From IMG/VR virus record IMGVR_UViG_3300042731_011319, positions 1-64,000 of that record: DNA of 64,000 bases. One strand, written 5' to 3'. The DNA comes from a virus. The notes under the pieces are model-generated. The model saw nothing but the letters and a program-made list of their open reading frames with translations. It did not search any database and had not been told where the DNA came from. The translations under genes were made by a program, and so were the position numbers. Below are positions 4,597-64,000 of the stretch, piece after piece (the first letter of the stretch is position 1; every line of letters begins with the position of its first letter).

Positions 4597-5358
4597 TTAA
4601 TATTTCCAATTAAATCTATTAATTTCTTCTCTGTAATATTTGGAGACAAGGTTTTTAGTTTCAACATTGTAGTAATCTCTATAGTTTTTTATAGAAATAG
4701 GTGTATTTGATTCGATCAATTCTTTTTTGCTGTCAAGTATATTTTTTTGACCAAGCACTTCAGATGACCAAGATAAACCTGCTTCTGAGCGAGATGACAA
4801 ATCTTTTGTATATGGAAATGTATTATATAATGAATCAATATCGACATTTAAATAATCACATAGTGAGCCTAATTGATCCTGAATTTGATCATATTTGATA
4901 ATATGAACATCCTCTTCACCAATCAACCAATCATAGCATCGAAGTGGAGCAATATAATCAGTTAAATTATATTTTTTTAAAAATATTTCGTCTGGAGTTT
5001 CAGTAAAGAAACAATAATTGTGAGTATCCTTAATTTCATTTACATAACAATTCAGCCAACTAGAAAAATCAACAAAGGAAGCCCAAATATAAGGAATATG
5101 ATAGATAGATACTAAGTGATCCCAAGGGTTGCGAATAATAGAAAATTTAAAATAATTTTTGATTTTCGAGTCAACCTGCACAAGTTGATTTAACGTCCAA
5201 TGTTTTGCGTCTTTTCCTTTTATGAAAGTAACTTCTTCCCAAAATTCTGAAGAAGATAACTTATTTGCATAAAAGATATTATAAATTTGATTGCACAAAT
5301 AACTACCAGAAGTTCTTGGTATATGTATAAATGCTAATTTTAGTTGATGGCAAATCAT
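4597..5358 (-). CDS. Sulfotransferase family 2
   Basis: 5'-PSB FIHIPRTSGS, 3'-PB FSIIRNPWDHLVSIY, C-terminal YRDYY...EINRFNWKY. Confidence 0.85.
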   Translation of the reverse strand: MICHQLKLAFIHIPRTSGSYLCNQIYNIFYANKLSSSEFWEEVTFIKGKDAKHWTLNQLVQVDSKIKNYFKFSIIRNPWDHLVSIYHIPYIWASFVDFSSWLNCYVNEIKDTHNYCFFTETPDEIFLKKYNLTDYIAPLRCYDWLIGEEDVHIIKYDQIQDQLGSLCDYLNVDIDSLYNTFPYTKDLSSRSEAGLSWSSEVLGQKNILDSKKELIESNTPISIKNYRDYYNVETKNLVSKYYREEINRFNWKY

Positions 5359-8959: not shown

Positions 8960-9742
8960 TTAATATTTAACAGTTTGAGAGGAAACAATAAAAAATGGAT
9001 TCAGTAAGTTTTCTTTATTATATAATAAAGGTTCTTTAGTGTCAGCAACAAGAACTTTAGCACCACTTTCTTCGGAAATTATTTGTGGAGCGCAAGTGTC
9101 CCATTCCATGGTTGGGCCAAATCTAGGGTAAATATCAGCTTGACCTTCTGCCACCAAGCAAAATTTTAGGGAGCTTCCGATATTAATAGTTGCTACTTCG
9201 TAATTATCTTTTAATTTATTAATAAACTCTTCGGTTTCTTTATTTAAATGAGACTTGCTCGCAACTACATTGATCTTATTTTCTTGGAAATTGTGGGAAT
9301 AATTTGCATATATGCGCTCATCATTTTTAAATGAACCAACTCCTTGGATTCCGTAATACTGATCTTGTTTTTTGGGGCAAGCAACATAACCAAATACAGG
9401 CTCATCTCCTTTACATAGGGCGATATTAATGCAAAAATCATCCCCGCCCGCAACAAATTCTTTGGTTCCGTCAATTGGGTCGATTAACCAATAATAATCC
9501 CAATCTTTGCGGTCTTCATAATTGATATGCTGATCCTCTTCAGAGATAATATTTGACACTTTTGTGTTAGCAAATAGAAATTCCCTTATCCTTTTGTTGG
9601 AATGAAGATCGGCCTCGGTAAGAGGGCTTTTATCATCCTTCTGCAAAGTCTCAAAACCATTTGCTTGTATCTCTACAACTTCTTTGGAAAGTTCGGCACC
9701 AAAAGATAGCAGTGAATCGATAAATGTTTTATTTATTTGCAT
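8960..9742 (-). CDS. cysQ: 3'(2'),5'-bisphosphate nucleotidase CysQ (PAP phosphatase)
   Basis: KDDKSPLTEAD, IISEE, WLIDPIDGTKEF, VASKSH, GSSLKFCLVAEGQADIYPRFGPTMEWDT. Confidence 0.93.
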   Translation of the reverse strand: MQINKTFIDSLLSFGAELSKEVVEIQANGFETLQKDDKSPLTEADLHSNKRIREFLFANTKVSNIISEEDQHINYEDRKDWDYYWLIDPIDGTKEFVAGGDDFCINIALCKGDEPVFGYVACPKKQDQYYGIQGVGSFKNDERIYANYSHNFQENKINVVASKSHLNKETEEFINKLKDNYEVATINIGSSLKFCLVAEGQADIYPRFGPTMEWDTCAPQIISEESGAKVLVADTKEPLLYNKENLLNPFFIVSSQTVKY

Positions 9743-12907: not shown

Positions 12908-13537
12908 TTAAGCGGGTTTTTCGAATTTATAACCAAACCTAATGATGTCCGAGTGATATTTTTTTGCCACCATTCCGATAGTTTCTTCATCATAATATTC
13001 GCTATAATGCTTATGCTTGGTAGTATTTTGGGTAGGTAAGGCTTGATATGGAATGCCTATCTCTTGGCATGCATGCTTGTAGTCATCCGGAAGATTTTCG
13101 ACTTTACCTATAAAATTAAAATCTTCGGTTATCCATTTTAGTTGAGATGGTTCATGCATCCCCTGAAACGCGCTTTTAGTTAAAAAATCTTTAAATGATT
13201 GAGTACCTTCCTTCACTTTTAGGCAATCTTTGTAATAACCGGGAGCGCATAATTGAATTTCTTTATCGTCAGCACATTTAAGTGTATAAAAATATTGAGA
13301 AACAATTCTCGAAAAAGGATTACGGACAAAGGCAAACCTATAGTATTCATTCCAGGCCAAACCTTCCTGATTAAAATATTCCTCCATTTTATTGCCAGTG
13401 ACATGATGATAAAAATAAGATTTTCGGCCACCAACAGCTTTTACATCAGACCACCTGCATAAACGGTGACGCATGGCGGTAGTGGCATTTTTTGGTATCG
13501 ATATAAAAAGAAATTTTTTTCTGTGAGATAATACCAT
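12908..13537 (-). CDS. Sulfotransferase family 2
   Basis: FISIPKNATT, FAFVRNPFSRIVSQY, IGKVENL, HYSEYY...DIIRFGYKF. Confidence 0.9.
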   Translation of the reverse strand: MVLSHRKKFLFISIPKNATTAMRHRLCRWSDVKAVGGRKSYFYHHVTGNKMEEYFNQEGLAWNEYYRFAFVRNPFSRIVSQYFYTLKCADDKEIQLCAPGYYKDCLKVKEGTQSFKDFLTKSAFQGMHEPSQLKWITEDFNFIGKVENLPDDYKHACQEIGIPYQALPTQNTTKHKHYSEYYDEETIGMVAKKYHSDIIRFGYKFEKPA

Positions 13538-13560: not shown

Positions 13561-14211
13561 TTAAGTGGGTTTTGCGAATTTATAACCAAACCTAATTATA
13601 TCTGCGCGATATTTTCGAGCAACTATTTCCATTGTTTCTTCGTCATAGTATTCGCTATAATGTCTATGGGGAGTTTGATTTTTTATTGGAAGAGGTTTTC
13701 TGGTAATTCCCAGTTTTTTACAAACTATATCGAAATCAGTTTGCAAGGTTTCGAATCTGCCGATAAAGTCGCAGTCAACTATTTGAGATGCTTGATCTGA
13801 AAACCAAATGCCATCTTCAGCGGTATGATTAACTAAATTGATAGATACAAATTCTTTAAAATTACTTGGGACCACAAAGTTCTCTGAGCATTTTACGCCA
13901 TCGTGTTGCTGCATATATTTATATATAGACACTGCTCGATCAAAAGGATTACGCACAAATGCAAACTTAAAATAAGAATCTATTAATTGTCTGTCATCCT
14001 CGCATGTGTGATTCTTTAATACTTTATAGCTTACATGATTAGGGTCATCATCGTAGTTTTCATACAAAAATTGAGGCTTTAAAGCGTCAAAAACTTTATT
14101 GAACTGATGTTCTGTGCATTCATCGGAGCATTCCAATAATGAATATAGTATAGATGTAGAGGCAGTTTTAGGGACTCGAACGAAAACAGATTGTGTATTC
14201 CAAAAAATCAT
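13561..14211 (-). CDS. Sulfotransferase family 2
   Basis: FVRVPKTASTS, FAFVRNPFDRAVSIY, IGRFETL, HYSEYY...DIIRFGYKF. Confidence 0.9.
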   Translation of the reverse strand: MIFWNTQSVFVRVPKTASTSILYSLLECSDECTEHQFNKVFDALKPQFLYENYDDDPNHVSYKVLKNHTCEDDRQLIDSYFKFAFVRNPFDRAVSIYKYMQQHDGVKCSENFVVPSNFKEFVSINLVNHTAEDGIWFSDQASQIVDCDFIGRFETLQTDFDIVCKKLGITRKPLPIKNQTPHRHYSEYYDEETMEIVARKYRADIIRFGYKFAKPT

Positions 14212-14214
14212 AAT

Positions 14215-15267
14215 TTATATTAAAAAGTTAGATATAGTTTGATGCAGTTTCTTGACCCTTAATTTTATTTCAAAATCTAACTTGTCGGGCCAATTAGCAA
14301 AAAGTTTAGAAGCAATAGAATAATTATAATTTAAGATATTTAACACATCTAAGGAATTTACAGAATCCAAGCAAAATTGATTGACTTCGGACTGATTGAT
14401 CGGCTCAGCTTCGGCGATATTAATTCCAATAAAATCATGATGATTATTTGAATCGTAAAAAATAGGTATAGAGAGAGAAAGTACTGAGTCGAATATTTTT
14501 TCTGTAAGATAATTATTCTCGATTGTGTTTTCAAGTGCAAAAAGAAATTTAGCATTTTTAAAGCACCAATCTAGTTTATTTCTGTGAAAAGAATTTCCAG
14601 TATAAATAGTTTCTTCTGTCAAAGAGCCAAGTTCTTTATTTCCTCTGCCAAAAAAATCACAATTCAACTCTGGTATAGTGACAAGATAGTCTGCTAATTC
14701 ATCTTTTAATCCATTTAAGCACAAGCCTGTAGGATTCTTAGAGAAATCGAATTGATTTTGCTCAGGTGGAGTTTTGCGATAATATAATCCTGTAATATCA
14801 TATGTTTTGCTTTTGTAAATTTTATTAAAATCAATACGATTTAAAAGATTTAAGTAAAACTGATAATTTTTTAAGTAAACTTGGTCGGTAGTCAAGAAAT
14901 AAGGTATATATTTATATTCAAAAATGTCAGTAAATTTATGATTAATAACGTGGTAATGAAAATATAAGCTATCATCATCCTTATCCCTAGCAATATAATC
15001 ACCTTTATCAGATCGAGTAAAAGTAGACCAGCTATTGTCCCAAACAGGCTCTTCGCTAACCAATATAACTGGCTTATTTTGCTTTACCGATAAAAATCCA
15101 GAAAAATCTTTACGAATATCATTAATATAAGAAAATAAAATAAAATCCGCATCATTAGGACAATCGACTTCACAAAAGAACTTACTTAATTCCGCTTGGT
15201 ATGAAGCATAAGAAAATAGGCAAATTTTTGTACTATAGCCGTATTTATAATATTTAATTAAACTCAT
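14215..15267 (-). CDS. GT10 (alpha-1,3-fucosyltransferase-like) glycosyltransferase
   Basis: KFLFALENT...YLTEKIFDS....IPIFY GT10 signature; SEEP motif. Confidence 0.75.
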   Translation of the reverse strand: MSLIKYYKYGYSTKICLFSYASYQAELSKFFCEVDCPNDADFILFSYINDIRKDFSGFLSVKQNKPVILVSEEPVWDNSWSTFTRSDKGDYIARDKDDDSLYFHYHVINHKFTDIFEYKYIPYFLTTDQVYLKNYQFYLNLLNRIDFNKIYKSKTYDITGLYYRKTPPEQNQFDFSKNPTGLCLNGLKDELADYLVTIPELNCDFFGRGNKELGSLTEETIYTGNSFHRNKLDWCFKNAKFLFALENTIENNYLTEKIFDSVLSLSIPIFYDSNNHHDFIGINIAEAEPINQSEVNQFCLDSVNSLDVLNILNYNYSIASKLFANWPDKLDFEIKLRVKKLHQTISNFLI

Positions 15268-16099
15268 GAATAGTATAAGTCTTTGCAGAATCCTGAACGA
15301 TATGCCAAGACCTTCTTTGGGAGTCAGGTCGCCAAGGGTTTAATTGAGACCATATTCTATTTCTCTGTATCTCGTAAAACAAACGAATATCAGGGCAATT
15401 TTCTGGTGGGCTCATTTTATTTAAATGCTCAACAATTTTCATGGCGTTAAATTTATCTTTGCCAGAAAGAGAAGAAAAGTCAGGATTTAACAAGTCATCC
15501 AAATCCAATAATGTTTGATTGATATAACGAGCTTCTTGGGTAGACTCTATGTGATTAAATAAATCATAATTAAAGTCTAGACCTTCGAGTTTAAGAGCTG
15601 ACAAGCGGTTGTATAAATCAGAGTCATCCCAGCCATAAGTTGTGATTCCTTCATGATAACCATTGACCCGCCAAAAATCTTCAGTCTTGCAGTAAAGTTG
15701 TCCATTTAGATGAAGTTCGTTTTCATTTCTGGCAATTTTCCAATTACCACGAAAAAAAGAAAATTCAGGTAAAATGTGAAAACTCAAAAAAGTTGGGTCA
15801 AGTACAATATCTGAGTCTAACTTTAAAATATGGTCATATTTAGCGAAAGAAATTGCCAGATTAAATGCATGACTTAAAATCCATTTTGGCTGATTATTGA
15901 CTCTCAACAATTTAATATCTTTTGATGCACAATTCCGGTGTAAATCAGAATATTTAATTGGCTCATCGGAAGACCAATCAAGCACAATGATTTCACTGAC
16001 TTCATCTAATTCATCCCACGACTTTATCGAAAGCAGAAGATTATCAGTGCGATTCATTGCACAGGTTACGAGAGAACACCCTTTCTTGAAGCTTTTCAT
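15254..16099 (-). CDS. GT2/GT7C-like glycosyltransferase
   Basis: CAMNR, LDWSS, KLDSD (DxD), VNGYHE...YGWDDSDL. Confidence 0.8.
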   Translation of the reverse strand: MKSFKKGCSLVTCAMNRTDNLLLSIKSWDELDEVSEIIVLDWSSDEPIKYSDLHRNCASKDIKLLRVNNQPKWILSHAFNLAISFAKYDHILKLDSDIVLDPTFLSFHILPEFSFFRGNWKIARNENELHLNGQLYCKTEDFWRVNGYHEGITTYGWDDSDLYNRLSALKLEGLDFNYDLFNHIESTQEARYINQTLLDLDDLLNPDFSSLSGKDKFNAMKIVEHLNKMSPPENCPDIRLFYEIQRNRIWSQLNPWRPDSQRRSWHIVQDSAKTYTIHEFN

Positions 16100-16113
16100 A
16101 AACTTATTTTACA

Positions 16114-16809
16114 CTAAAATGAAGTACCACTCTCTAAAAACTTATAGGTTTCATACATGCAACTTGGCGACAAATAATGAGATGAAATTTTACCATTCAA
16201 GAGTTGTTTTTTTGCAAAATCATCAGATTCATGAGCCCAATTCAAATCTGCATTACGATCTGCAAACGGAATCCATAAACCTTCGTTTAACTGAATGTTG
16301 TCTATAATTTCAATTCCTGCATCCCTCATAGATGCAGCAACTCCAATATCCTCACCTCCTTCTTGATGTAAATAAAAATCAAGATGATTCCAAGCTTTTT
16401 GAATTGCAGATCGCGATAAAATATAACCTGACCCCCCTTGAGCATATGGTAGTCCTTTGAAATTTTTTTTCTTTCCTATATACAAATCATCTTGGGGGTT
16501 AAAATTTTTTAGGTACTCTTTGAGAAGTTCGAAATTAACAAAAGTGTCATCATCGCATTTAAATAAAAAGTCCCAATCGTGAGACAAGGACTGTTTTAAC
16601 ATTTTATAAGTTTTTTCAGGAAGCCTACTGCGACTCTCACCCAAGTCGGGAGAGCAGTTCAGGGTATTTTTCATTGATTTAGACTGAACTAAGTCACCAT
16701 AAAAAAAATATTCATGAGGGCTTTCAATACCTTTCAGCCAAGTATTTAAGCAGGCATCGGCCTGCTCTTGTGTTTCGCTGCAGGTTAATACACAAACTAA
16801 TATTTTCAA
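16114..16809 (-). CDS. GT31/Fringe-like glycosyltransferase
   Basis: FLFKCDDDTFVN, YAQGGSGYILS, EDIGV. Confidence 0.8.
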   Translation of the reverse strand: MKILVCVLTCSETQEQADACLNTWLKGIESPHEYFFYGDLVQSKSMKNTLNCSPDLGESRSRLPEKTYKMLKQSLSHDWDFLFKCDDDTFVNFELLKEYLKNFNPQDDLYIGKKKNFKGLPYAQGGSGYILSRSAIQKAWNHLDFYLHQEGGEDIGVAASMRDAGIEIIDNIQLNEGLWIPFADRNADLNWAHESDDFAKKQLLNGKISSHYLSPSCMYETYKFLESGTSF

Positions 16810-17758: not shown

Positions 17759-18514
17759 TTAAAAGTTTTGGGTTAATATTTTTTTTGCGGCAGCGACTCT
17801 GATTGAATCTAAACAATCTAAATGTTTATACTCAGGGAGAAATTTTAATTTAAATCTAGCAGCTGAATGAGGTATATGCCAAGCTCGAGTGGCCAGATCA
17901 GTTCCGGAATAAACTTGTATGTGTTGATTAGTAATGTCGATGTTATATTTTGAATATAAAGATTTATAATCTTTGTTGTGGTCTTGAGTAAAGTTGAAAT
18001 AAAAAAACTCTTGATCGTGATAATGGTCTGCATTGGCAATTAAATAATTCAACCTTTCTTTTGTGATGTCTACAAATGCTTGGCATAAATTTTTAAAATA
18101 TTCTGCGGTTCCTGATGCTATAGATGGGCATGTCCCATCTAAGAAGGTTAAACTAGAATCATTTAAATTCCAATCCTTTTTGCTCGATCCATTATTGAAT
18201 ACATCGTAGTCTGATACAAGAACGAATTCATTTAGGTTATTGACAGTAGAGTATGCCATCCATCTCAGATAGCAATGCAGACCATATGCACTCAAAGCTT
18301 TTCCTGTAATCTGGTGACACAAGTCTGACATCTGTTCGGATAGAGTTTTAAAAAAAGGAGAATTTTGCGCATCTTTTAAGCTTACAATGCAAGGGTCAAA
18401 TCCAGCCCTACTCCAACTTTCGCTCCAGAGATTTAAAAGCTCTTCTTGCTTGTTGAAGGTGTGAGTGTTTCCAGGTTTATTGTTTAGCCCTTCATAGTAT
18501 GTGAGTATTTTCAT
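17759..18514 (-). CDS. Putative glycosyltransferase (GT-A fold)
   Basis: CYLRWMAY, SDYDV (DxD), HDQE; located in the glycan cluster. Confidence 0.55.
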   Translation of the reverse strand: MKILTYYEGLNNKPGNTHTFNKQEELLNLWSESWSRAGFDPCIVSLKDAQNSPFFKTLSEQMSDLCHQITGKALSAYGLHCYLRWMAYSTVNNLNEFVLVSDYDVFNNGSSKKDWNLNDSSLTFLDGTCPSIASGTAEYFKNLCQAFVDITKERLNYLIANADHYHDQEFFYFNFTQDHNKDYKSLYSKYNIDITNQHIQVYSGTDLATRAWHIPHSAARFKLKFLPEYKHLDCLDSIRVAAAKKILTQNF

Positions 18515-19161
18515 ATAGTATATCCTTTTAATTCTATTACGCCTTTTTCTTTGAGTGATACAAGATCTATTAGCTCTTGATTATATATATCATGCATGTT
18601 TTGCGAATTAGAACTTTTGTTCCCGTGATGTAAAATTGGAGGACTTATTTCTACTTGCTCGCACAAAAAGGCAAATTCATTTGATAAATTTTCGAAACTA
18701 GCAATATGGTCTACGATAATTTGACCGTTTTGATCACAATAATATTCATCTTGGGCAGGATTGTTGATTATAATGTTTTTGAGTATAGTTTGTTCGTCAG
18801 AATTGGAAAATAATGAAACACAATATTGTCCTTGATTAATTTCTGCCGCGCCCCAAGCTATCGATTCATCTCTACGCAAAAACTTGTCGGCGTAATTTTT
18901 AAAATATTTAAAAAAGCTAAAGTATCTAGCCCATGGATTGCGAACAATAGTGAATTTAAAATAGTCGTTCCAATCGAAGTTGTGCTTGGCGAATTGTTTT
19001 TTCGCTCGAATGGCTGTATCGTGCTGATAAAAGTCTGCTTCAACAAATGGTTTGCCAACTATATCAATGTATCCTAGCGGATACAAGCTTTCGCGAAAAG
19101 AGCGTGTGCCAGTTTTTGGGATATCAATTGTTATAAATTTATGAGAATGAGAAATTAACAT
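18511..19161 (-). CDS. Sulfotransferase family 2
   Basis: IDIPKTGTRS, FTIVRNPWARYFSFF, IASFENL. Confidence 0.88.
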   Translation of the reverse strand: MLISHSHKFITIDIPKTGTRSFRESLYPLGYIDIVGKPFVEADFYQHDTAIRAKKQFAKHNFDWNDYFKFTIVRNPWARYFSFFKYFKNYADKFLRRDESIAWGAAEINQGQYCVSLFSNSDEQTILKNIIINNPAQDEYYCDQNGQIIVDHIASFENLSNEFAFLCEQVEISPPILHHGNKSSNSQNMHDIYNQELIDLVSLKEKGVIELKGYTI

Positions 19162-20575: not shown

Positions 20576-21475
20576 TTATTTACAATATCTCTCCCATAAT
20601 TTTCTGTCCCAATATGTACGATCTAGAAACGTTTGTTGAATACTTGGATCTAGGTCTTCGAATTTTATTTTTATTTTTTTGGAAGTTTTGTTCTTATTAA
20701 TATGAGTGACTACAACATCGGACTCAATATCTGATTGAAGGATACCATAAGCACCGTGAAATACATTATTAATTAATTCATCTACTCCGCTAATATCGGA
20801 TATTCTAAAATACTGAAGGTATTGATTCGCTAATGTAAAATGTCTGGGCTCAATCACTTGAGAATCTTGCATGTCAAGCAAATGCCTTATAATCCAACTA
20901 TCTTCTAACTCGCTAGATTCAAGATATTCAAGTAAATTGGCAGAAACAATCGAATCGTGAGTCGGTTCATGCTTACTACTGTTACCCTTTATGTAATGAT
21001 ATAGCGACATAGACCTTGCAAAAGGATCCCGCAGAACTGTAAAGTTTAATTCATAGTCTCTTTTTGAAGCATGTTTAATCTTTTCTACAGCATCTCTTTG
21101 TATTGATGCTCCGGGAATAGTAGGATCAACACTAATCGAAAAAACTTCGACATCTCCATTATTAATAGAATCGATAAAAGATTCCAAGTCAACATAATCA
21201 GTTACTTCATCACTGAATTTATGTTTTTTAAAATTGTTATTTATTGTTGCAACATCTGTAGGGGTATGAATGCAGCAAGTCAATTGCTTTCCTTCTTTTA
21301 ATAAAACAATAGATCTCCTTATTCTTTTGGAAGTCCATCCTGGTATTTGATGCTTGCCTAAATATAAGTTGTATTTTCTGCATAACATCATCATCCAACT
21401 TAAAACATAAGTTCCTGCATTCTTGGCTATATGATAAAAAACAGGAAGATGTTTAGGATCTTTAACTATACTCAT
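20576..21475 (-). CDS. Sulfotransferase family 2-like (start revised to ATG 21475)
   Basis: FYHIAKNAGTY, FTVLRDPFARSMSLY, D..LW C-terminus; the track's GTG start is the GTGTA element. Confidence 0.8.
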   Translation of the reverse strand: MSIVKDPKHLPVFYHIAKNAGTYVLSWMMMLCRKYNLYLGKHQIPGWTSKRIRRSIVLLKEGKQLTCCIHTPTDVATINNNFKKHKFSDEVTDYVDLESFIDSINNGDVEVFSISVDPTIPGASIQRDAVEKIKHASKRDYELNFTVLRDPFARSMSLYHYIKGNSSKHEPTHDSIVSANLLEYLESSELEDSWIIRHLLDMQDSQVIEPRHFTLANQYLQYFRISDISGVDELINNVFHGAYGILQSDIESDVVVTHINKNKTSKKIKIKFEDLDPSIQQTFLDRTYWDRKLWERYCK

Positions 21476-21515
21476 GACCTTATATAGGTACACTTTATTA
21501 AAAAATAAATTCTAT

Positions 21516-22477: not shown

Positions 22478-22984
22478 TCATTTTACGATTCTGTCTACTA
22501 TGATTTGATGTGCGAATTTTTTGTCATGCCAGCCGTGTACTTTAACTTTATCACCTGACATAGATAAATCTTTGTAATGAGCAAAGAAGTTTTTTGAAAT
22601 CTGAAGAAAGCTCTCTTCTAGGTCTTTGATGTTAGAATATTGTCTGGTATAAAAATTTGGAACACCGACTAGCTTGTAATCCTTCTCTCCCTCGTCGTCC
22701 ATATCTAACACCCCAAGAATTTTGGTTTCCACAACTGTAGCTCGCTTGATTGGTTCAGGGCTGATAACTAAGATATCAAGGGGATCGCCATCTTCACATA
22801 AAGTGCCAGGAACAAACCCATAACTAGCTGGATAAACCATAGCAGAGTTTAAGCATCGATCATACATAAAGACACCAAGCTTCCCATCATATTCATATTT
22901 ATTTTTAGATCCTTCTTCGATCTCGATCACCGCATTAACAACTTGAGGCGATCTTTCATGTATTGGTAAGTGGTATAAGTTCAT
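22478..22984 (-). CDS. ppa: Family I inorganic pyrophosphatase
   Basis: IEI..GS.NKYE, DR, YPASYG, EDGDPLD, MDDEGEKDYK, FF.HYKDL. Confidence 0.95.
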   Translation of the reverse strand: MNLYHLPIHERSPQVVNAVIEIEEGSKNKYEYDGKLGVFMYDRCLNSAMVYPASYGFVPGTLCEDGDPLDILVISPEPIKRATVVETKILGVLDMDDEGEKDYKLVGVPNFYTRQYSNIKDLEESFLQISKNFFAHYKDLSMSGDKVKVHGWHDKKFAHQIIVDRIVK

Positions 22985-30583: not shown

Positions 30584-30796
30584 TTAATATACTTTTTCAG
30601 GAGAGCTTGTATAAATAAGAGCAACTTTGTGCATAGTAGTTTGATCCCATTGCTTAAGCATGTTAACTAATATTTCCGCACGATATTCTGCATCAGCTTT
30701 AGATGAATAATTTTTAGATTCAATCCGTCTGCCATCACGAGTAACAACATAGACATTATCACGATCTTTTGATACATTTCTTTTGATTAATTTCAT
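30584..30796 (-). CDS. Hypothetical protein (start revised to ATG 30796)
   Basis: MKLIKRN...YVVTRDGRRIE; 10 nt below a -10 box. Confidence 0.6.
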   Translation of the reverse strand: MKLIKRNVSKDRDNVYVVTRDGRRIESKNYSSKADAEYRAEILVNMLKQWDQTTMHKVALIYTSSPEKVY

Positions 30797-30890: not shown

Positions 30891-31697
30891 ATGACAAAAC
30901 GAAAAATACTTATCATGGGACTACCGGGATCAGGCAAAACAACACTTGCCGAAATACTGGTCAGGAAACTAAATGCAGCATGGTTTAATGCAGATGCAGT
31001 AAGACAAGAAATCCATAAAGATTTAGGATTTACTGCGGAAGATAGGTTAGAACATGCTACTCGCATGGGTAAGCTATGTGATTGGGCGAAATTAGGCGGC
31101 TCTTATGTAATCGCTGATTTTGTATGCCCAACTAAAGAAGCAAGAGCTGCATTTAATCCTGATTTTGTAATCTGGGTAGATAGAATCCAAGAGGGCAGAT
31201 ATGAAGACACGAATAAAATGTTTGAGAAGCCTGAAAATGCAGATGTAATTCTGCGAGAAGGATCCCCTGATGAATGGGCGCAACAAGCTCTTGAGGGTTT
31301 GTATAAAACAGAGGCATGGGACAACCAAGCTCCAACAGCATTACTCATAGGAAGGTATCAACCTTTTCATATTGGACATAAAACACTAGTTGCAGAATCG
31401 ATTAAAAGAACAGGTCAATGCTGTATTGCATTGAGAGATGTTGGAGGAATCGACGAAAAGAATCCTTACGATTTCAACAAAGTAAAAGCAGAAATAGAAT
31501 CAGCATGCGTTGAATTTGGTAATAAAATAAAAATTGTAGAATTGCCAAATATTACCGATGTTTTTTACGGACGTGGAGTTGGTTACAATATTGAACAACT
31601 GGAATTAAGTAAAGAACTTCAAGAAGTCTCTGCAACCAAAATTCGTGCAGGAGAAATTGGGCAAGACGGCAAACCTTTAGGTAAAAGACCAGAGTAG
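30891..31697 (+). CDS. cysC: Adenylylsulfate kinase fused to a HIGH-motif nucleotidyltransferase
   Basis: GLPGSGKTT, NADAVR..DLGF..EDR, ADFVCP (APS kinase); GRYQPFHIGH, NPY, YGRGVGY, SATKIR (NTase); start MTKRK at 30891. Confidence 0.85.
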   Translation: MTKRKILIMGLPGSGKTTLAEILVRKLNAAWFNADAVRQEIHKDLGFTAEDRLEHATRMGKLCDWAKLGGSYVIADFVCPTKEARAAFNPDFVIWVDRIQEGRYEDTNKMFEKPENADVILREGSPDEWAQQALEGLYKTEAWDNQAPTALLIGRYQPFHIGHKTLVAESIKRTGQCCIALRDVGGIDEKNPYDFNKVKAEIESACVEFGNKIKIVELPNITDVFYGRGVGYNIEQLELSKELQEVSATKIRAGEIGQDGKPLGKRPE

Positions 31698-31710: not shown

Positions 31711-32073
31711 TGGTGGACACGAGCGGAGTCGAACCGCTGTCTTTAAACCTTTAAAGATATACATCTACAAGTTTAGTTTATTTTTTTTATAGTTGTGATA
31801 TAAACATCTAACTACTTGTTTCAATTATTTACAGTTTGTGATACAAGTAAACTTTTTCTGTTTTGCAGATAAATGACCCCACAATCCTTCTATCTGCATC
31901 AAAGGTTGTGAGGTAGCAGAACTAAGCTGCTAAAGCAAGCTCGCGCTTTTTGAAGGCGAAAGCTTTAATACGTGACTTATTGCCATGTAGATTTTTGCAC
32001 CTTTTTAAGGAGCCAGATGCAACTCCTACTTGCAGTATACCAATCCAATTTAAATCAAATCCAGTACGTGCCC
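31711..32073 (-). ncRNA. ssrA: tmRNA
   Basis: 5' GGGCACG pairs with 3' CGTGTCC (G3-U wobble), then ACCA; T-arm AGCGG-TTCGACT-CCGCT; GGATTTGA D-loop; pk1 GGAG/CTCC and TTGCATCT/AGGTGCAA; 363 nt. Confidence 0.95.
31922..31984 (-). other. tmRNA tag reading frame (A)GNKSRIKAFAFKKRELALAA*
   Basis: Open frame just after pk1, ending LALAA-TAG; resume codon GGC inferred from position. Confidence 0.8.
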
Positions 32074-32109: not shown

Positions 32110-33234
32110 TTATTGACCTTGTGCAATCTCTTGATTGCCATCTTGAGTTGTAATAGGGTTCTGGGATCTAGCAGCTTCATAAAGAGCATTATAGTTTTTG
32201 GTTACTTTTTGATATCTACGCCTAGTTATTGTTCTGAGTGATTCTTCGCTCATTCTGCTGGGCCCTTCTTCGCTAAATAATTTTAAGATAGCTATATCTT
32301 TTTCTGTAACATCTACTTCCCATTTAATTTGATATCCGAAATCAGGAATCGGCGATGACAATTCCGGCGCAAAAGCCCTAGGCTGATCAGCACTTTTAGA
32401 TTCGGTCCAAGTAAATACTGGAACAACACCATGCCAAGTTTCGTGAAAAGCACCGATATTAATCTTGGGTTCAACTACAGAATTATCGATACGAGAAGGA
32501 TTAATTCGGTCAAATAAATTATTATAAGCCAACGGAAATCCAAAATCGTTTTCTTCATAAGAATAGACATGCAAATATTTGAATAAATTAAATGCAGACC
32601 ATGAGCCATGGTCAGCATTTTTCAAAACCAATCTTCTTTGAGCTGAAGGATCGAGCTTTTTAAAATTTTCATAAAAACGATCCGCAAAATCACAATAAGA
32701 ATCATGATCTTCTTTTGCTGGTTGAGAATTTAAATGAAGCAAGATAGGCGCAGAGATATTTTCCTGCAACCCAATTTCATCAAGAAACCAAGAGTAGAAA
32801 TTAATTTCTTTGATTGATTTTTCAACGACTGCATCATCATCATCAATAAGTTTACAGAATTTATCAGGCTGAATAGATAAAGAAACTCCTTTTGTAATCG
32901 AAGCCCTTCCAATTGATTGAATAGCTTCCGTAACCTGTCCATAGTTAGGTAGGTCTTGAATGGATAAATCAAACGAAGGATCAGAAAGAATACCAAATAC
33001 GGTAGCATTTAATCTATAATGATCAATTCCGCTATCTCTACAGAAATCAATAATTTTAATTGTAAGATTAAGATTTTTTAAGATCTCAGACTGCAATTGA
33101 TTTATTGCAGCCTCATCTCCTTGCTGAGAAGCTAATTCGGTATAAGCCTTGCGAGTTAAGCCGACGAACTGATTGGCGGGATCCTCTTGTTGGAGGATTT
33201 TAGAATTACAAACTAATCCGTATTTGGTATTCAT
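32110..33234 (-). CDS. UvsE/UVDE-fold protein with degenerate active site
   Basis: YGLVC, NL, GI.HYRL, RLVLKN, K.IAIL scaffold; most metal ligands substituted. Confidence 0.75.
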   Translation of the reverse strand: MNTKYGLVCNSKILQQEDPANQFVGLTRKAYTELASQQGDEAAINQLQSEILKNLNLTIKIIDFCRDSGIDHYRLNATVFGILSDPSFDLSIQDLPNYGQVTEAIQSIGRASITKGVSLSIQPDKFCKLIDDDDAVVEKSIKEINFYSWFLDEIGLQENISAPILLHLNSQPAKEDHDSYCDFADRFYENFKKLDPSAQRRLVLKNADHGSWSAFNLFKYLHVYSYEENDFGFPLAYNNLFDRINPSRIDNSVVEPKINIGAFHETWHGVVPVFTWTESKSADQPRAFAPELSSPIPDFGYQIKWEVDVTEKDIAILKLFSEEGPSRMSEESLRTITRRRYQKVTKNYNALYEAARSQNPITTQDGNQEIAQGQ

Positions 33235-33631: not shown

Positions 33632-34168
33632 TTATCTGTATTGTTTTCTTAGTAGACGCCAGCGATCAGAATCGATAGGTTTGCTGCCATTATCTATAGC
33701 ATACAACATATCTATGATTTCGTCAAGCGAATTATAAATATATTTGTGGGGCATCATGCCAAGCATCCATAATGGGGTCTTTGCTTTGCCGCCTTCCATG
33801 CTGATAAAGATTGGTTTTTTCATGCGTACTGCGGTGACGATTTCTTCGCCGCTTCCCCAGCTTGCAACTTCTGGTACAAGATGGGCAACAATAAAATCAC
33901 TACGATCAACAAGGTTCAAGTCATATGAACGAACAGTCTTCATTTTCTCTGCGACACGATCATATTGCTTGGTCTTCATCCAAGTCTCCATCTCAACACG
34001 AGAAGCTTCGTCTTCTTCCACATCCTTAATAAAAGGTTTTTCATAGGGATTAAAACAGGTGATATTAAGGTCCGAAAGTTTTTCGGTTACTTCTTGTCGC
34101 CAGTCTCGACCGCTCAAGTACTGCATGTGGCCAACTAAATATGTTTTTGTTTTATATAAAAGATTCAT
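33632..34168 (-). CDS. Nucleoside 2-deoxyribosyltransferase-like protein
   Basis: YLVGHM, WR, FNP, DL..VDRSD, SWGSGEE, KPI. Confidence 0.75.
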   Translation of the reverse strand: MNLLYKTKTYLVGHMQYLSGRDWRQEVTEKLSDLNITCFNPYEKPFIKDVEEDEASRVEMETWMKTKQYDRVAEKMKTVRSYDLNLVDRSDFIVAHLVPEVASWGSGEEIVTAVRMKKPIFISMEGGKAKTPLWMLGMMPHKYIYNSLDEIIDMLYAIDNGSKPIDSDRWRLLRKQYR

Positions 34169-63482: not shown

Positions 63483-64000
63483 TTAAAATTGGTAATTATA
63501 TTTATTAATATCCCCTTGATATATATTATACACAGCTCTTTTACTATCTTCCATATATAATTTTCTATAGTCTGAATTATTTGTTGAGTTAATTTTACGA
63601 AGATTAGTTCTTGGTAGTTGAAGTTTTTTTAAAATGTATGCATAGTCTTCTTGAATGTTTTCAAATCTAGCAAGATAATCAATATTAGAATCAAGGAAAT
63701 AATCATAAGCTTGAAAATGGATGCCAGATTGAAAAGAACCCTCTTCCCGTTTCATTAGTTTCATGAAGTCAGGGATATGATTGACGAATTCATTAAAATC
63801 CATTTCGTTTGCAGCATCTGATATAATGCTATTTCTTTTATACCAATGATGTCCTGGTTTTAGTTTGCGAAAATATTTATACGCCGAAACTACCCGATCA
63901 TATGGATTGCGAATAAAAGTAAACGAAAAATAATTAGAATGTTCAGAGTGATAAGACATTGGGGAATGACCAGAAAACCCAAGCGACTCTAAGTTAAGCT
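63483..64000 (-). CDS. Sulfotransferase family 2, 5'-truncated at window edge
   Basis: FTFIRNPYDRVVSAY, RFENI, YRKLY...DI..YNYQF; frame stays open to the window end. Confidence 0.85.
   Translation of the reverse strand, partial: LNLESLGFSGHSPMSYHSEHSNYFSFTFIRNPYDRVVSAYKYFRKLKPGHHWYKRNSIISDAANEMDFNEFVNHIPDFMKLMKREEGSFQSGIHFQAYDYFLDSNIDYLARFENIQEDYAYILKKLQLPRTNLRKINSTNNSDYRKLYMEDSKRAVYNIYQGDINKYNYQF

Follow-up and report, generated by a model that had tools for sequence, protein, structure and literature searches.

A stretch of viral DNA 64,000 nucleotides (nt) in length, corresponding to positions 1 to 64,000 of the IMG/VR record IMGVR_UViG_3300042731_011319 and hereafter called the window, was found to carry at positions 30891-31697 (plus strand) a gene for a kinase-nucleotidyltransferase fusion, which we consider here as a candidate synthase of 3'-phosphoadenosine 5'-phosphosulfate (PAPS). 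Translation of the gene gives a protein of 268 amino acids (aa) followed by a stop codon (P0001) and, as a preliminary description of the locus had proposed, Pfam matches place a kinase in its N-terminal half and a nucleotidyltransferase (NT) in its C-terminal half. The four NT motifs quoted in that description are all present in the translation, namely GRYQPFHIGH (residues 154-163), NPY (191-193), YGRGVGY (226-232) and SATKIR (247-252), along with a P-loop, GLPGSGKT, at residues 10-17 of the kinase half. The fusion is the lone plus-strand gene within a long run of minus-strand genes. Its reading frame could alternatively be extended upstream to a TTG start at 30783; P0001, however, shares its Met-Thr-Lys-Arg-Lys start with homologues of 267-268 aa. 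The protein is spanned end to end by PHROG 10255 (E = 4.9e-54), named only 'kinase', and belongs to a large family, with more than 7000 homologues at 90% clustering and 2774 representatives at 50%. An AlphaFold2 (AF2) model of the whole protein reached a mean predicted local distance difference test score (pLDDT) of 93.7. A megablast search with 16 kb around the gene returned no match among GenBank phages, matches in the ESM Atlas were limited to clusters automatically named 'cytidyltransferase', and within the literature searched on phage PAPS supply, pelagiphage sulfotransferases and DUF2061 we found no paper on this kinase-NT family.

The kinase half (residues 1 to ~140; 30891-31310, plus strand) was identified from Pfam, PDB sequence and Foldseek matches as a P-loop kinase domain resembling adenosine 5'-phosphosulfate (APS) kinase. 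The Pfam APS_kinase profile (PF01583) matched residues 6-87 (E = 3e-13; 50.5 bits, relative to a gathering cut-off of 21.1), covering profile positions 5-91 of 152 and leaving the lid region (~92-152) unmatched. The best PDB sequence matches of this half were all APS kinases, and among the Foldseek matches listed for the AF2 model (to rank 47) all were likewise APS kinase structures, with a best E of 1.3e-9. From alignments to 2yvu, 3uie and 2pey, the P-loop and the LGF..DR motif (as LGFTAEDRLEH) were seen to be retained, while NADAVR replaces DGDxxR through a change of the first Asp to Asn, with the second Asp and the Arg retained. Residues R38 and R52 show conservation of 90% or more across the family. 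In the published structures, such motif residues are assigned to APS binding. By its sequence and fold, the kinase half is best described as a trimmed APS kinase.

The NT half (residues 142-268; 31314-31694, plus strand) is a miniature HxGH nucleotidyltransferase domain and a candidate sulfate adenylyltransferase, delimited from an alignment of 25 sequences (A2), a profile and a structural model. Pfam detects it only as CTP_transf_like, at residues 152-176 (E = 5.6e-5; 23.8 bits for a cut-off of 21). Invariant in A2 are T149, G154, R155, Q157, P158, H160, G162, H163, Q176 and R182 in the N-terminal part of the domain, and P219, N220, Y226, G227, R228, V230, G231, Y232, S247, A248, T249 and R252 in the C-terminal part; the family consensus of the loop that reads YGRGVGY in P0001 is YGRDVGY. 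Searched against PDB sequences, the A2 profile identified NadM and archaeal nicotinamide mononucleotide adenylyltransferases (NMNATs) at E values of 5e-9 to 1e-4 (2qjt, 5e-9; 1f9a, 3.6e-6), and no ATP sulfurylase at E <= 10. Alignment to the MJ0541 NMNAT extends over only the first ~55 and the last ~25 residues of the domain (profile positions ~11-65 and ~91-116), which at 127 aa compared with 168 aa is ~40 residues shorter. In a model of the isolated domain (pLDDT 88), no helix is present between strand 3 (72-77) and residue 100, the next one being the terminal SATKIR helix. The stretch missing relative to NMNAT is the one that carries the nicotinamide-stacking Trp in NMNAT structures, and nicotinamide mononucleotide (NMN) is therefore an unlikely substrate. 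Furthermore, P0001 scored 20.8 bits with TIGR01527 and 28.9 bits with NF003786 (both NadM/NMNAT models), for cut-offs of 181.2 and 397 bits, respectively. As judged from these comparisons, the NT domain is a NadM/NMNAT derivative without specific likeness to Sat, one that has lost ~30 residues from the second half of the ancestral domain and gained the invariant Arg182 and a Tyr-Gly-Arg loop.

This assignment bears on the preliminary description, in which a Sat-type resemblance of the domain had been argued from its fold, its HxxH motif and the YGRGVGY string. The string itself does recall a Sat loop, the family consensus YGRDVGY containing Gly-Arg-Asp, but the likeness does not extend to the domain as a whole: its HxGH motif is of the NadM type and not the QxRNPxHxxH of Sat. 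Structural comparison with Sat and NadM, which had been suggested as a check, placed Sat within a general crowd of nucleotidyltransferases. VIA-align Z scores of the domain were 10.2 for phosphopantetheine adenylyltransferase (PPAT), 9.6 for NadM, 9.6 for the MJ NMNAT, 8.7 for the Thermus thermophilus ATP sulfurylase (1v47; root-mean-square deviation 3.3 over 117 residues, and within ~1.5 Z of PPAT and NMNAT) and 8.4-8.7 for NadR. Foldseek returned only weak rows for the isolated domain, the best being NadM (E = 2e-3), with the Sat structure 8a8g ranked 38. Because the profile finds NMNATs only and the fold searches are generic, the specific resemblance to Sat is left unsupported.

The gene content of the phage is rich in enzymes of sulfation, as the preliminary description had also noted. 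The record containing the window, from a large marine phage, is 109.7 kb long and estimated to be 81% complete, and includes ten matches to Sulfotransfer_2 (PF03567), of which six fall within the window. Among these six, the PAPS consumers with the best scores form an adjacent pair on the minus strand (12908-13537, E = 8.5e-18; 13561-14211, E = 1.0e-18), and further minus-strand genes of this family were identified at 18511-19161 (E = 2.1e-8 and 3.2e-9 in two scans), at 4597-5358 (E = 3.0e-7; sharing a BLAST cluster with other sulfotransferases) and at 63483-64000, where the gene runs off the window edge (E = 6.4e-16 at record positions 63489-64070). A sixth, at 20576-21493 (minus strand), is a borderline Sulfotransfer_2-like gene with E values at the cut-off (2.2e-4 and 4.7e-5). 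Also identified on the minus strand were an inorganic pyrophosphatase (22478-22984; PF00719, E = 3.4e-47) and a CysQ-like phosphatase of the Inositol_P family (8960-9742; PF00459, E = 2.2e-49), which from its family membership is a candidate PAP (3'-phosphoadenosine 5'-phosphate) phosphatase. The earlier statement that no other source of APS is in the window holds for the whole 109.7-kb record as searched, in which neither Sat (PF01747) nor CysD/PAPS_reduct (PF01507) was found. The phage is also rich in glycosyltransferases, and those found at 14215-16809 (minus strand), next to sulfotransferase genes, belong to families of eukaryote type, namely GT10 fucosyltransferase, Glyco_transf_7C and Fringe-like.

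The association between the fusion and sulfation genes recurs among related phages. Sulfotransfer_2 matches were identified in 27 of 40 IMG/VR records carrying the fusion (12 of 14 among those with a completeness of 90% or more), with up to ~11 matches per record, and Sat in none of the 40. A strong pyrophosphatase match was present in 18 of these records; the orthologous gene adjoins the fusion in two loci (L025 and L027) and lies two genes off in three others (L023, L034 and L036). At four loci (L067-L070) where identity of the fusion is down to 40%, it is immediately followed by a sulfotransferase gene. Counted over 80 loci, the genes found no more than two positions from the fusion included sulfotransferase (14), DUF2061 (9), DUF1501 (7), pyrophosphatase (5) and HAD phosphatase (4) genes. 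The DUF1501 protein (426 aa; PF07394, E = 2.7e-110), which we take to be a member of the sulfatase/alkaline-phosphatase clan and which carries a putative N-terminal twin-arginine signal, adjoins the fusion in L005-L010, L023 (11674-12954), L032 and L036; no copy lies next to the fusion in this window. DUF2061 is a membrane protein of ~80 aa whose gene comes next after the fusion at nine phage loci (DUF2061-carrying loci: L054 (10748-10993), L060-L063, L065, L072 and L079), and in some homologues the kinase-NT protein is instead joined to a membrane domain, DUF4118 (P0152, 395 aa). DUF2061 may be a membrane partner, for example an entry route for sulfate or an anchor; it is not an obligatory one, since our search found none in this phage or its close relatives. 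Orthologues retaining all motifs of the fusion were also identified in two 56-kb phages of the Sano/Salvo type, Xylella phage Bacata (L002:6559-7735) and Stenotrophomonas phage Bhz60 (L003:6559-7735), in which the fusion is paired with an NADAR gene; genes for a MazG-like pyrophosphatase and for a protein annotated as cysteine dioxygenase are found near this pair. A Sulfotransfer_2 match in Bacata (E = 1.5e-3, below the cut-off), to an unannotated and open-ended frame of 194 aa at the record end, was dismissed as noise on its score.

Around the fusion gene itself, a full-length transfer-messenger RNA gene (31711-32073, minus strand; Rfam RF00023, 120 bits, E = 2.4e-48), unreported by ARAGORN, is convergent with the fusion and lies 14 nt past its stop codon. 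The locus is further flanked by genes for a UvdE UV-endonuclease (32110-33234, minus strand; E = 6.9e-21) and a nucleoside 2-deoxyribosyltransferase-like protein (33632-34168, minus strand; PF15891, E = 1.9e-8), the latter being at most two genes away from the fusion at 7 of the 80 related loci.

Cellular members of the family were identified in a sample of 251 alphaproteobacterial genomes (completeness setting at least 85%), of which seven carry the NT and none of those seven a Sat gene. One carrier, G227, is a small genome of 1.1 Mb in which neither CysD nor Sat was found, and encodes seven co-directional genes, several of them overlapping, for CbiX and a uroporphyrinogen (tetrapyrrole) methylase, both of siroheme synthesis, sulfite reductase, CysH, DUF2061 (L166:2109-2375), the APS-kinase-like protein and, in last position, the NT, after which a convergent RNase E/G gene follows. 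The DUF2061 gene is thus placed between cysH and the kinase gene. This operon is one of assimilatory sulfate reduction that lacks nothing but a known sulfurylase, and in the place expected for that enzyme lies the NT. In a second genome, G196, assembled as a single 2.06-Mb contig and also without a detected CysD or Sat, a Sulfotransfer_3 gene (E = 1.7e-18) lies 12 nt after the fused gene, and at a further locus (L129) an arylsulfotransferase-like gene is found downstream of the fusion. The contexts of the fusion at five other alphaproteobacterial loci (L089, L099, L114, L125 and L157) were uninformative.

A wider scan with the NT alignment, covering one genome per prokaryotic species, returned at least 600 stretches, 572 of which were confirmed by tblastn; 80 loci were kept, most of them from Pelagibacteraceae. 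In these SAR11 genomes the kinase and the NT are usually encoded by separate adjacent genes of ~135 aa each, and 55 of the 74 classified loci are split in this way with the kinase directly upstream of the NT. A further 11 of the 74 have the NT alone according to a pattern match by which two or more intact kinases were overlooked. Searches of three near-complete SAR11 genomes found neither Sat nor CysD, and Sulfotransfer_1 genes were identified in 8 of 8 genomes. CoaD, CoaE and NadD are all present in SAR11, and the pair is therefore not a housekeeping enzyme of coenzyme A (CoA) or NAD synthesis. Two incomplete single-cell genomes keep the NT, the kinase not being found there with one protein query, while at a third SAR11 locus (L098; G054:C6:16287-16690) the kinase upstream of an intact NT is broken by stops and frameshifts. 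The occurrence of the NT without a kinase suggests that it has a role of its own. A conserved block around the split pair (L128:10638-11057; L128:4203-7579) also includes genes for a GcvT-family aminomethyltransferase, a Rieske oxygenase, an enoyl-CoA hydratase, a CoA-binding protein and a YeeE/YedE-type sulfur-transport fragment. Previous work has reported that most SAR11 lack ATP sulfurylase despite having AprAB (PMC10356861), and that hypervariable surface-polysaccharide genes of Pelagibacter include sulfotransferases (10.64898/2026.04.03.716430).

With the observed domain identities, kinase family and gene contexts as a basis, we consider the fusion probably to be a minimal bifunctional PAPS synthase, the gene contexts pointing to sulfate as the substrate of the NT. 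The proposal that the NT adenylates sulfate was already made in the preliminary description; its structural argument is not supported, and the comparative context, that is the adjacency to phage sulfotransferases, the G227 operon and the G196 pair, speaks in its favor. In the mechanism we envisage, the NT would bind ATP through its HxGH and SxT..R motifs, as its relatives do, and, its NMN-binding elements having been lost, would let sulfate attack the alpha-phosphate of ATP to give APS and pyrophosphate, with the invariant Arg182 and the Tyr226-Gly-Arg228 loop as candidate sulfate-binding residues. The phage pyrophosphatase may remove pyrophosphate and the fused APS kinase, possibly supplied by channelling between the domains, would phosphorylate the 3'-OH of APS to yield PAPS, both of which would pull the unfavourable APS step forward. 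The ten phage sulfotransferases would then consume PAPS, and the CysQ-like phosphatase may clear the resulting PAP. PAPS synthesis is in itself a known function; what would be new, as a family, is the sulfurylase module. With somewhat more reserve, though still as the reading we lean towards, the ~125-aa, NadM-derived NT may represent an ATP sulfurylase of a third class, so far overlooked, in addition to Sat and CysDN, which would feed the phage sulfotransferases, supply the ATP sulfurylase step long noted as missing alongside AprAB in SAR11 and other streamlined alphaproteobacteria and, in some lineages, form part of a complete and overlooked sulfate-assimilation operon.

Comparison with known systems indicates which features are shared and which are particular to this family. 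Close in design are the metazoan PAPS synthases PAPSS1/2 (1x6v, 1xjq), which are a top structural match of the kinase half and which likewise join an N-terminal APS kinase to a C-terminal adenylyltransferase of the HxxH superfamily, converting sulfate to APS and PAPS as we propose for P0001. However, the matched PAPSS1 chains comprise 590 and 586 residues as opposed to 268, and the C-terminal domain of P0001, whose relatives are NMNATs, has no PF01747 match, PUA-like domain or QxRNPxHxxH signature; the kinase lid of P0001 is shortened. Relative to stand-alone CysC (PF01583, TIGR00455; 1m7g, 2yvu, 3uie), the kinase half shares the P-loop, the Asp and Arg of DGDxxR, the LGF..DR motif and the fold, but differs in the loop that replaces the lid helix, in the Asn for the first Asp, in its partial profile match and in its score below the equivalog cut-off. 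With NadM and archaeal NMNATs (2qjt, 1f9a, 1hyb), the NT shares GR(F/Y)QPFHxGH, the NP(F/Y) loop, S-x-T-x-I-R and the first beta-alpha-beta half; it differs in its shorter length, the unmatched middle of its second half, the extra R182 and YGR(D/G)VGY elements, and in its link to an APS kinase, by fusion or as a neighbouring gene, in sulfur-related contexts. Sat (PF01747; 1v47, 1r6x, 8a8g) has in common with the NT the superfamily fold, HxxH, the Gly-Arg-Asp string of the NT consensus and the proposed reaction, whereas no sequence relationship is detectable, the signature before HxxH differs, and the NT, at roughly a third of Sat in size, lacks the N-terminal beta-barrel domain. NadR (1lw7, 6gye) also combines an HxGH adenylyltransferase with a P-loop kinase, although in P0001 the domain order is reversed, the kinase is of the APS kinase family and a helix-turn-helix domain is lacking.

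A number of observations weigh against PAPS synthesis by the fusion. As the NT is a relative of NMNAT and not of Sat, its substrate is deduced from context only, and PPAT, NMNAT and Sat all fall between Z 8.7 and 10.2, so that the fold searches do not discriminate among them. In the kinase half the lid is shortened to a loop, QEGRYEDTN, followed by FEKPEN, which resembles the YEAPEN segment of APS kinases; because of this replacement the APS_kinase profile is matched only up to position 91 of 152, and the TIGR00455 score of P0001 (45.7 bits) therefore falls below the equivalog cut-off of 138.7. CysD is present in two of the seven alphaproteobacterial NT carriers (one of them, G277, an unpublished genome on which only that count depends), and the lack of CysD in 5 of 7 carriers versus 110 of the 244 remaining genomes is not a significant difference (Fisher two-sided p = 0.25). 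In most SAR11 genomes the split pair lies among genes of osmolyte catabolism, not of sulfur metabolism. AprA was identified in 7 of 8 SAR11 genomes carrying the pair, and APS could thus arise there from sulfite and AMP without a sulfurylase. Lastly, in Bacata and Bhz60 the fusion overlaps the upstream NADAR (COG3236) gene by 8 nt, and no Sulfotransfer_2 gene was found in the Sano/Salvo-type phages.

The presence of AprA is in keeping with an explanation in which only the kinase half serves sulfation, APS being supplied by the host (by AprAB where the host is SAR11-like, and by CysDN or Sat elsewhere), and in which the NT carries out another adenylyl transfer or is a non-catalytic nucleotide-binding or oligomerisation module. 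Phage relatives with the kinase alone do exist (Ralstonia phages RSL1 and RsoM2USA, and L064), and the CysD of two NT-carrying genomes and the missing Sat similarity of the NT fit this explanation as well. However, the catalytic motifs HxGH and SxT..R of the NT, together with several more Arg, Tyr and Asn residues, show no variation even at 38% identity, an argument in favor of an active enzyme; no Sat or CysD was found in the genomes that hold the G227 operon and the G196 pair (AprA was not searched there); and SAR11 keeps the NT where the kinase was not found (two genomes) or is broken (a third). We regard a contribution of the kinase half alone as unlikely. Alternatively, the NT could adenylylate a phospho-compound such as phosphopantetheine or a sugar-1-phosphate, the latter in connection with the phage glycan genes, while the kinase acts on the adenosine 3'-OH of the product or on the sugar beforehand, as in a pair resembling CoA synthase or HldE. 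PPAT is the best structural match of the NT, some databases name its homologues 'phosphopantetheine adenylyltransferase', the phage abounds in glycosyltransferases, and CoA-binding and enoyl-CoA hydratase genes lie near the SAR11 pair; yet both CoaD and CoaE occur in SAR11 in their canonical form, the likeness of the kinase is specifically to APS kinases, and sulfotransferases, CysH and sulfite reductase, rather than genes of sugar activation, are what is conserved as neighbours in the different clades, which makes such a pair quite improbable.

Two further explanations invoke NAD-related chemistry, and to each we assign very little weight. A NadR-like salvage route, with the kinase acting on nicotinamide riboside and the NT converting NMN to NAD as a phage counter to NAD depletion, would accord with NadM/NMNAT being the closest sequence relatives of the NT, with the pairing of the same two enzyme classes in NadR, and with the NADAR neighbour in Sano-type phages, which points to NAD or ADP-ribose chemistry. 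The kinase nevertheless matches APS kinases, only its P-loop region (residues 4-36) aligning to NadR models; the NMNAT equivalog scores are far under their cut-offs; the second half of NMNAT, which includes the nicotinamide-binding helix, is unmatched in the shortened domain; SAR11 already possesses NadD; and the sulfotransferase, CysH and sulfite-reductase contexts would be left unexplained. It is similarly hard to credit that the family as a whole acts on a nucleotide derived from ADP-ribose or NAD, such as a defence signal, with the link to sulfation in marine phages being secondary. The translational coupling of the fusion to the NADAR gene in at least Bacata and Bhz60, where Sulfotransfer_2 is missing, would be accounted for, but searches of this phage and of the 40 related records turned up no NADAR gene, and the sulfate-assimilation operon of G227 would have no explanation.

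If the NT of the fusion does activate sulfate, as the proposed PAPS synthesis entails, the reaction with which all sulfate metabolism starts would gain a new family of enzymes, and the supply of PAPS in sulfotransferase-rich phages without a known sulfurylase would be explained. A PAPS synthase of only 268 aa would, in that event, also be useful as a compact tool where sulfation is to be done enzymatically. The SAR11 bacteria, which are the most abundant in the sea, have been described as unable to use sulfate and as being without ATP sulfurylase, but with AprAB and sulfotransferases, and sulfate activation by the NT would bear directly on their sulfur physiology.

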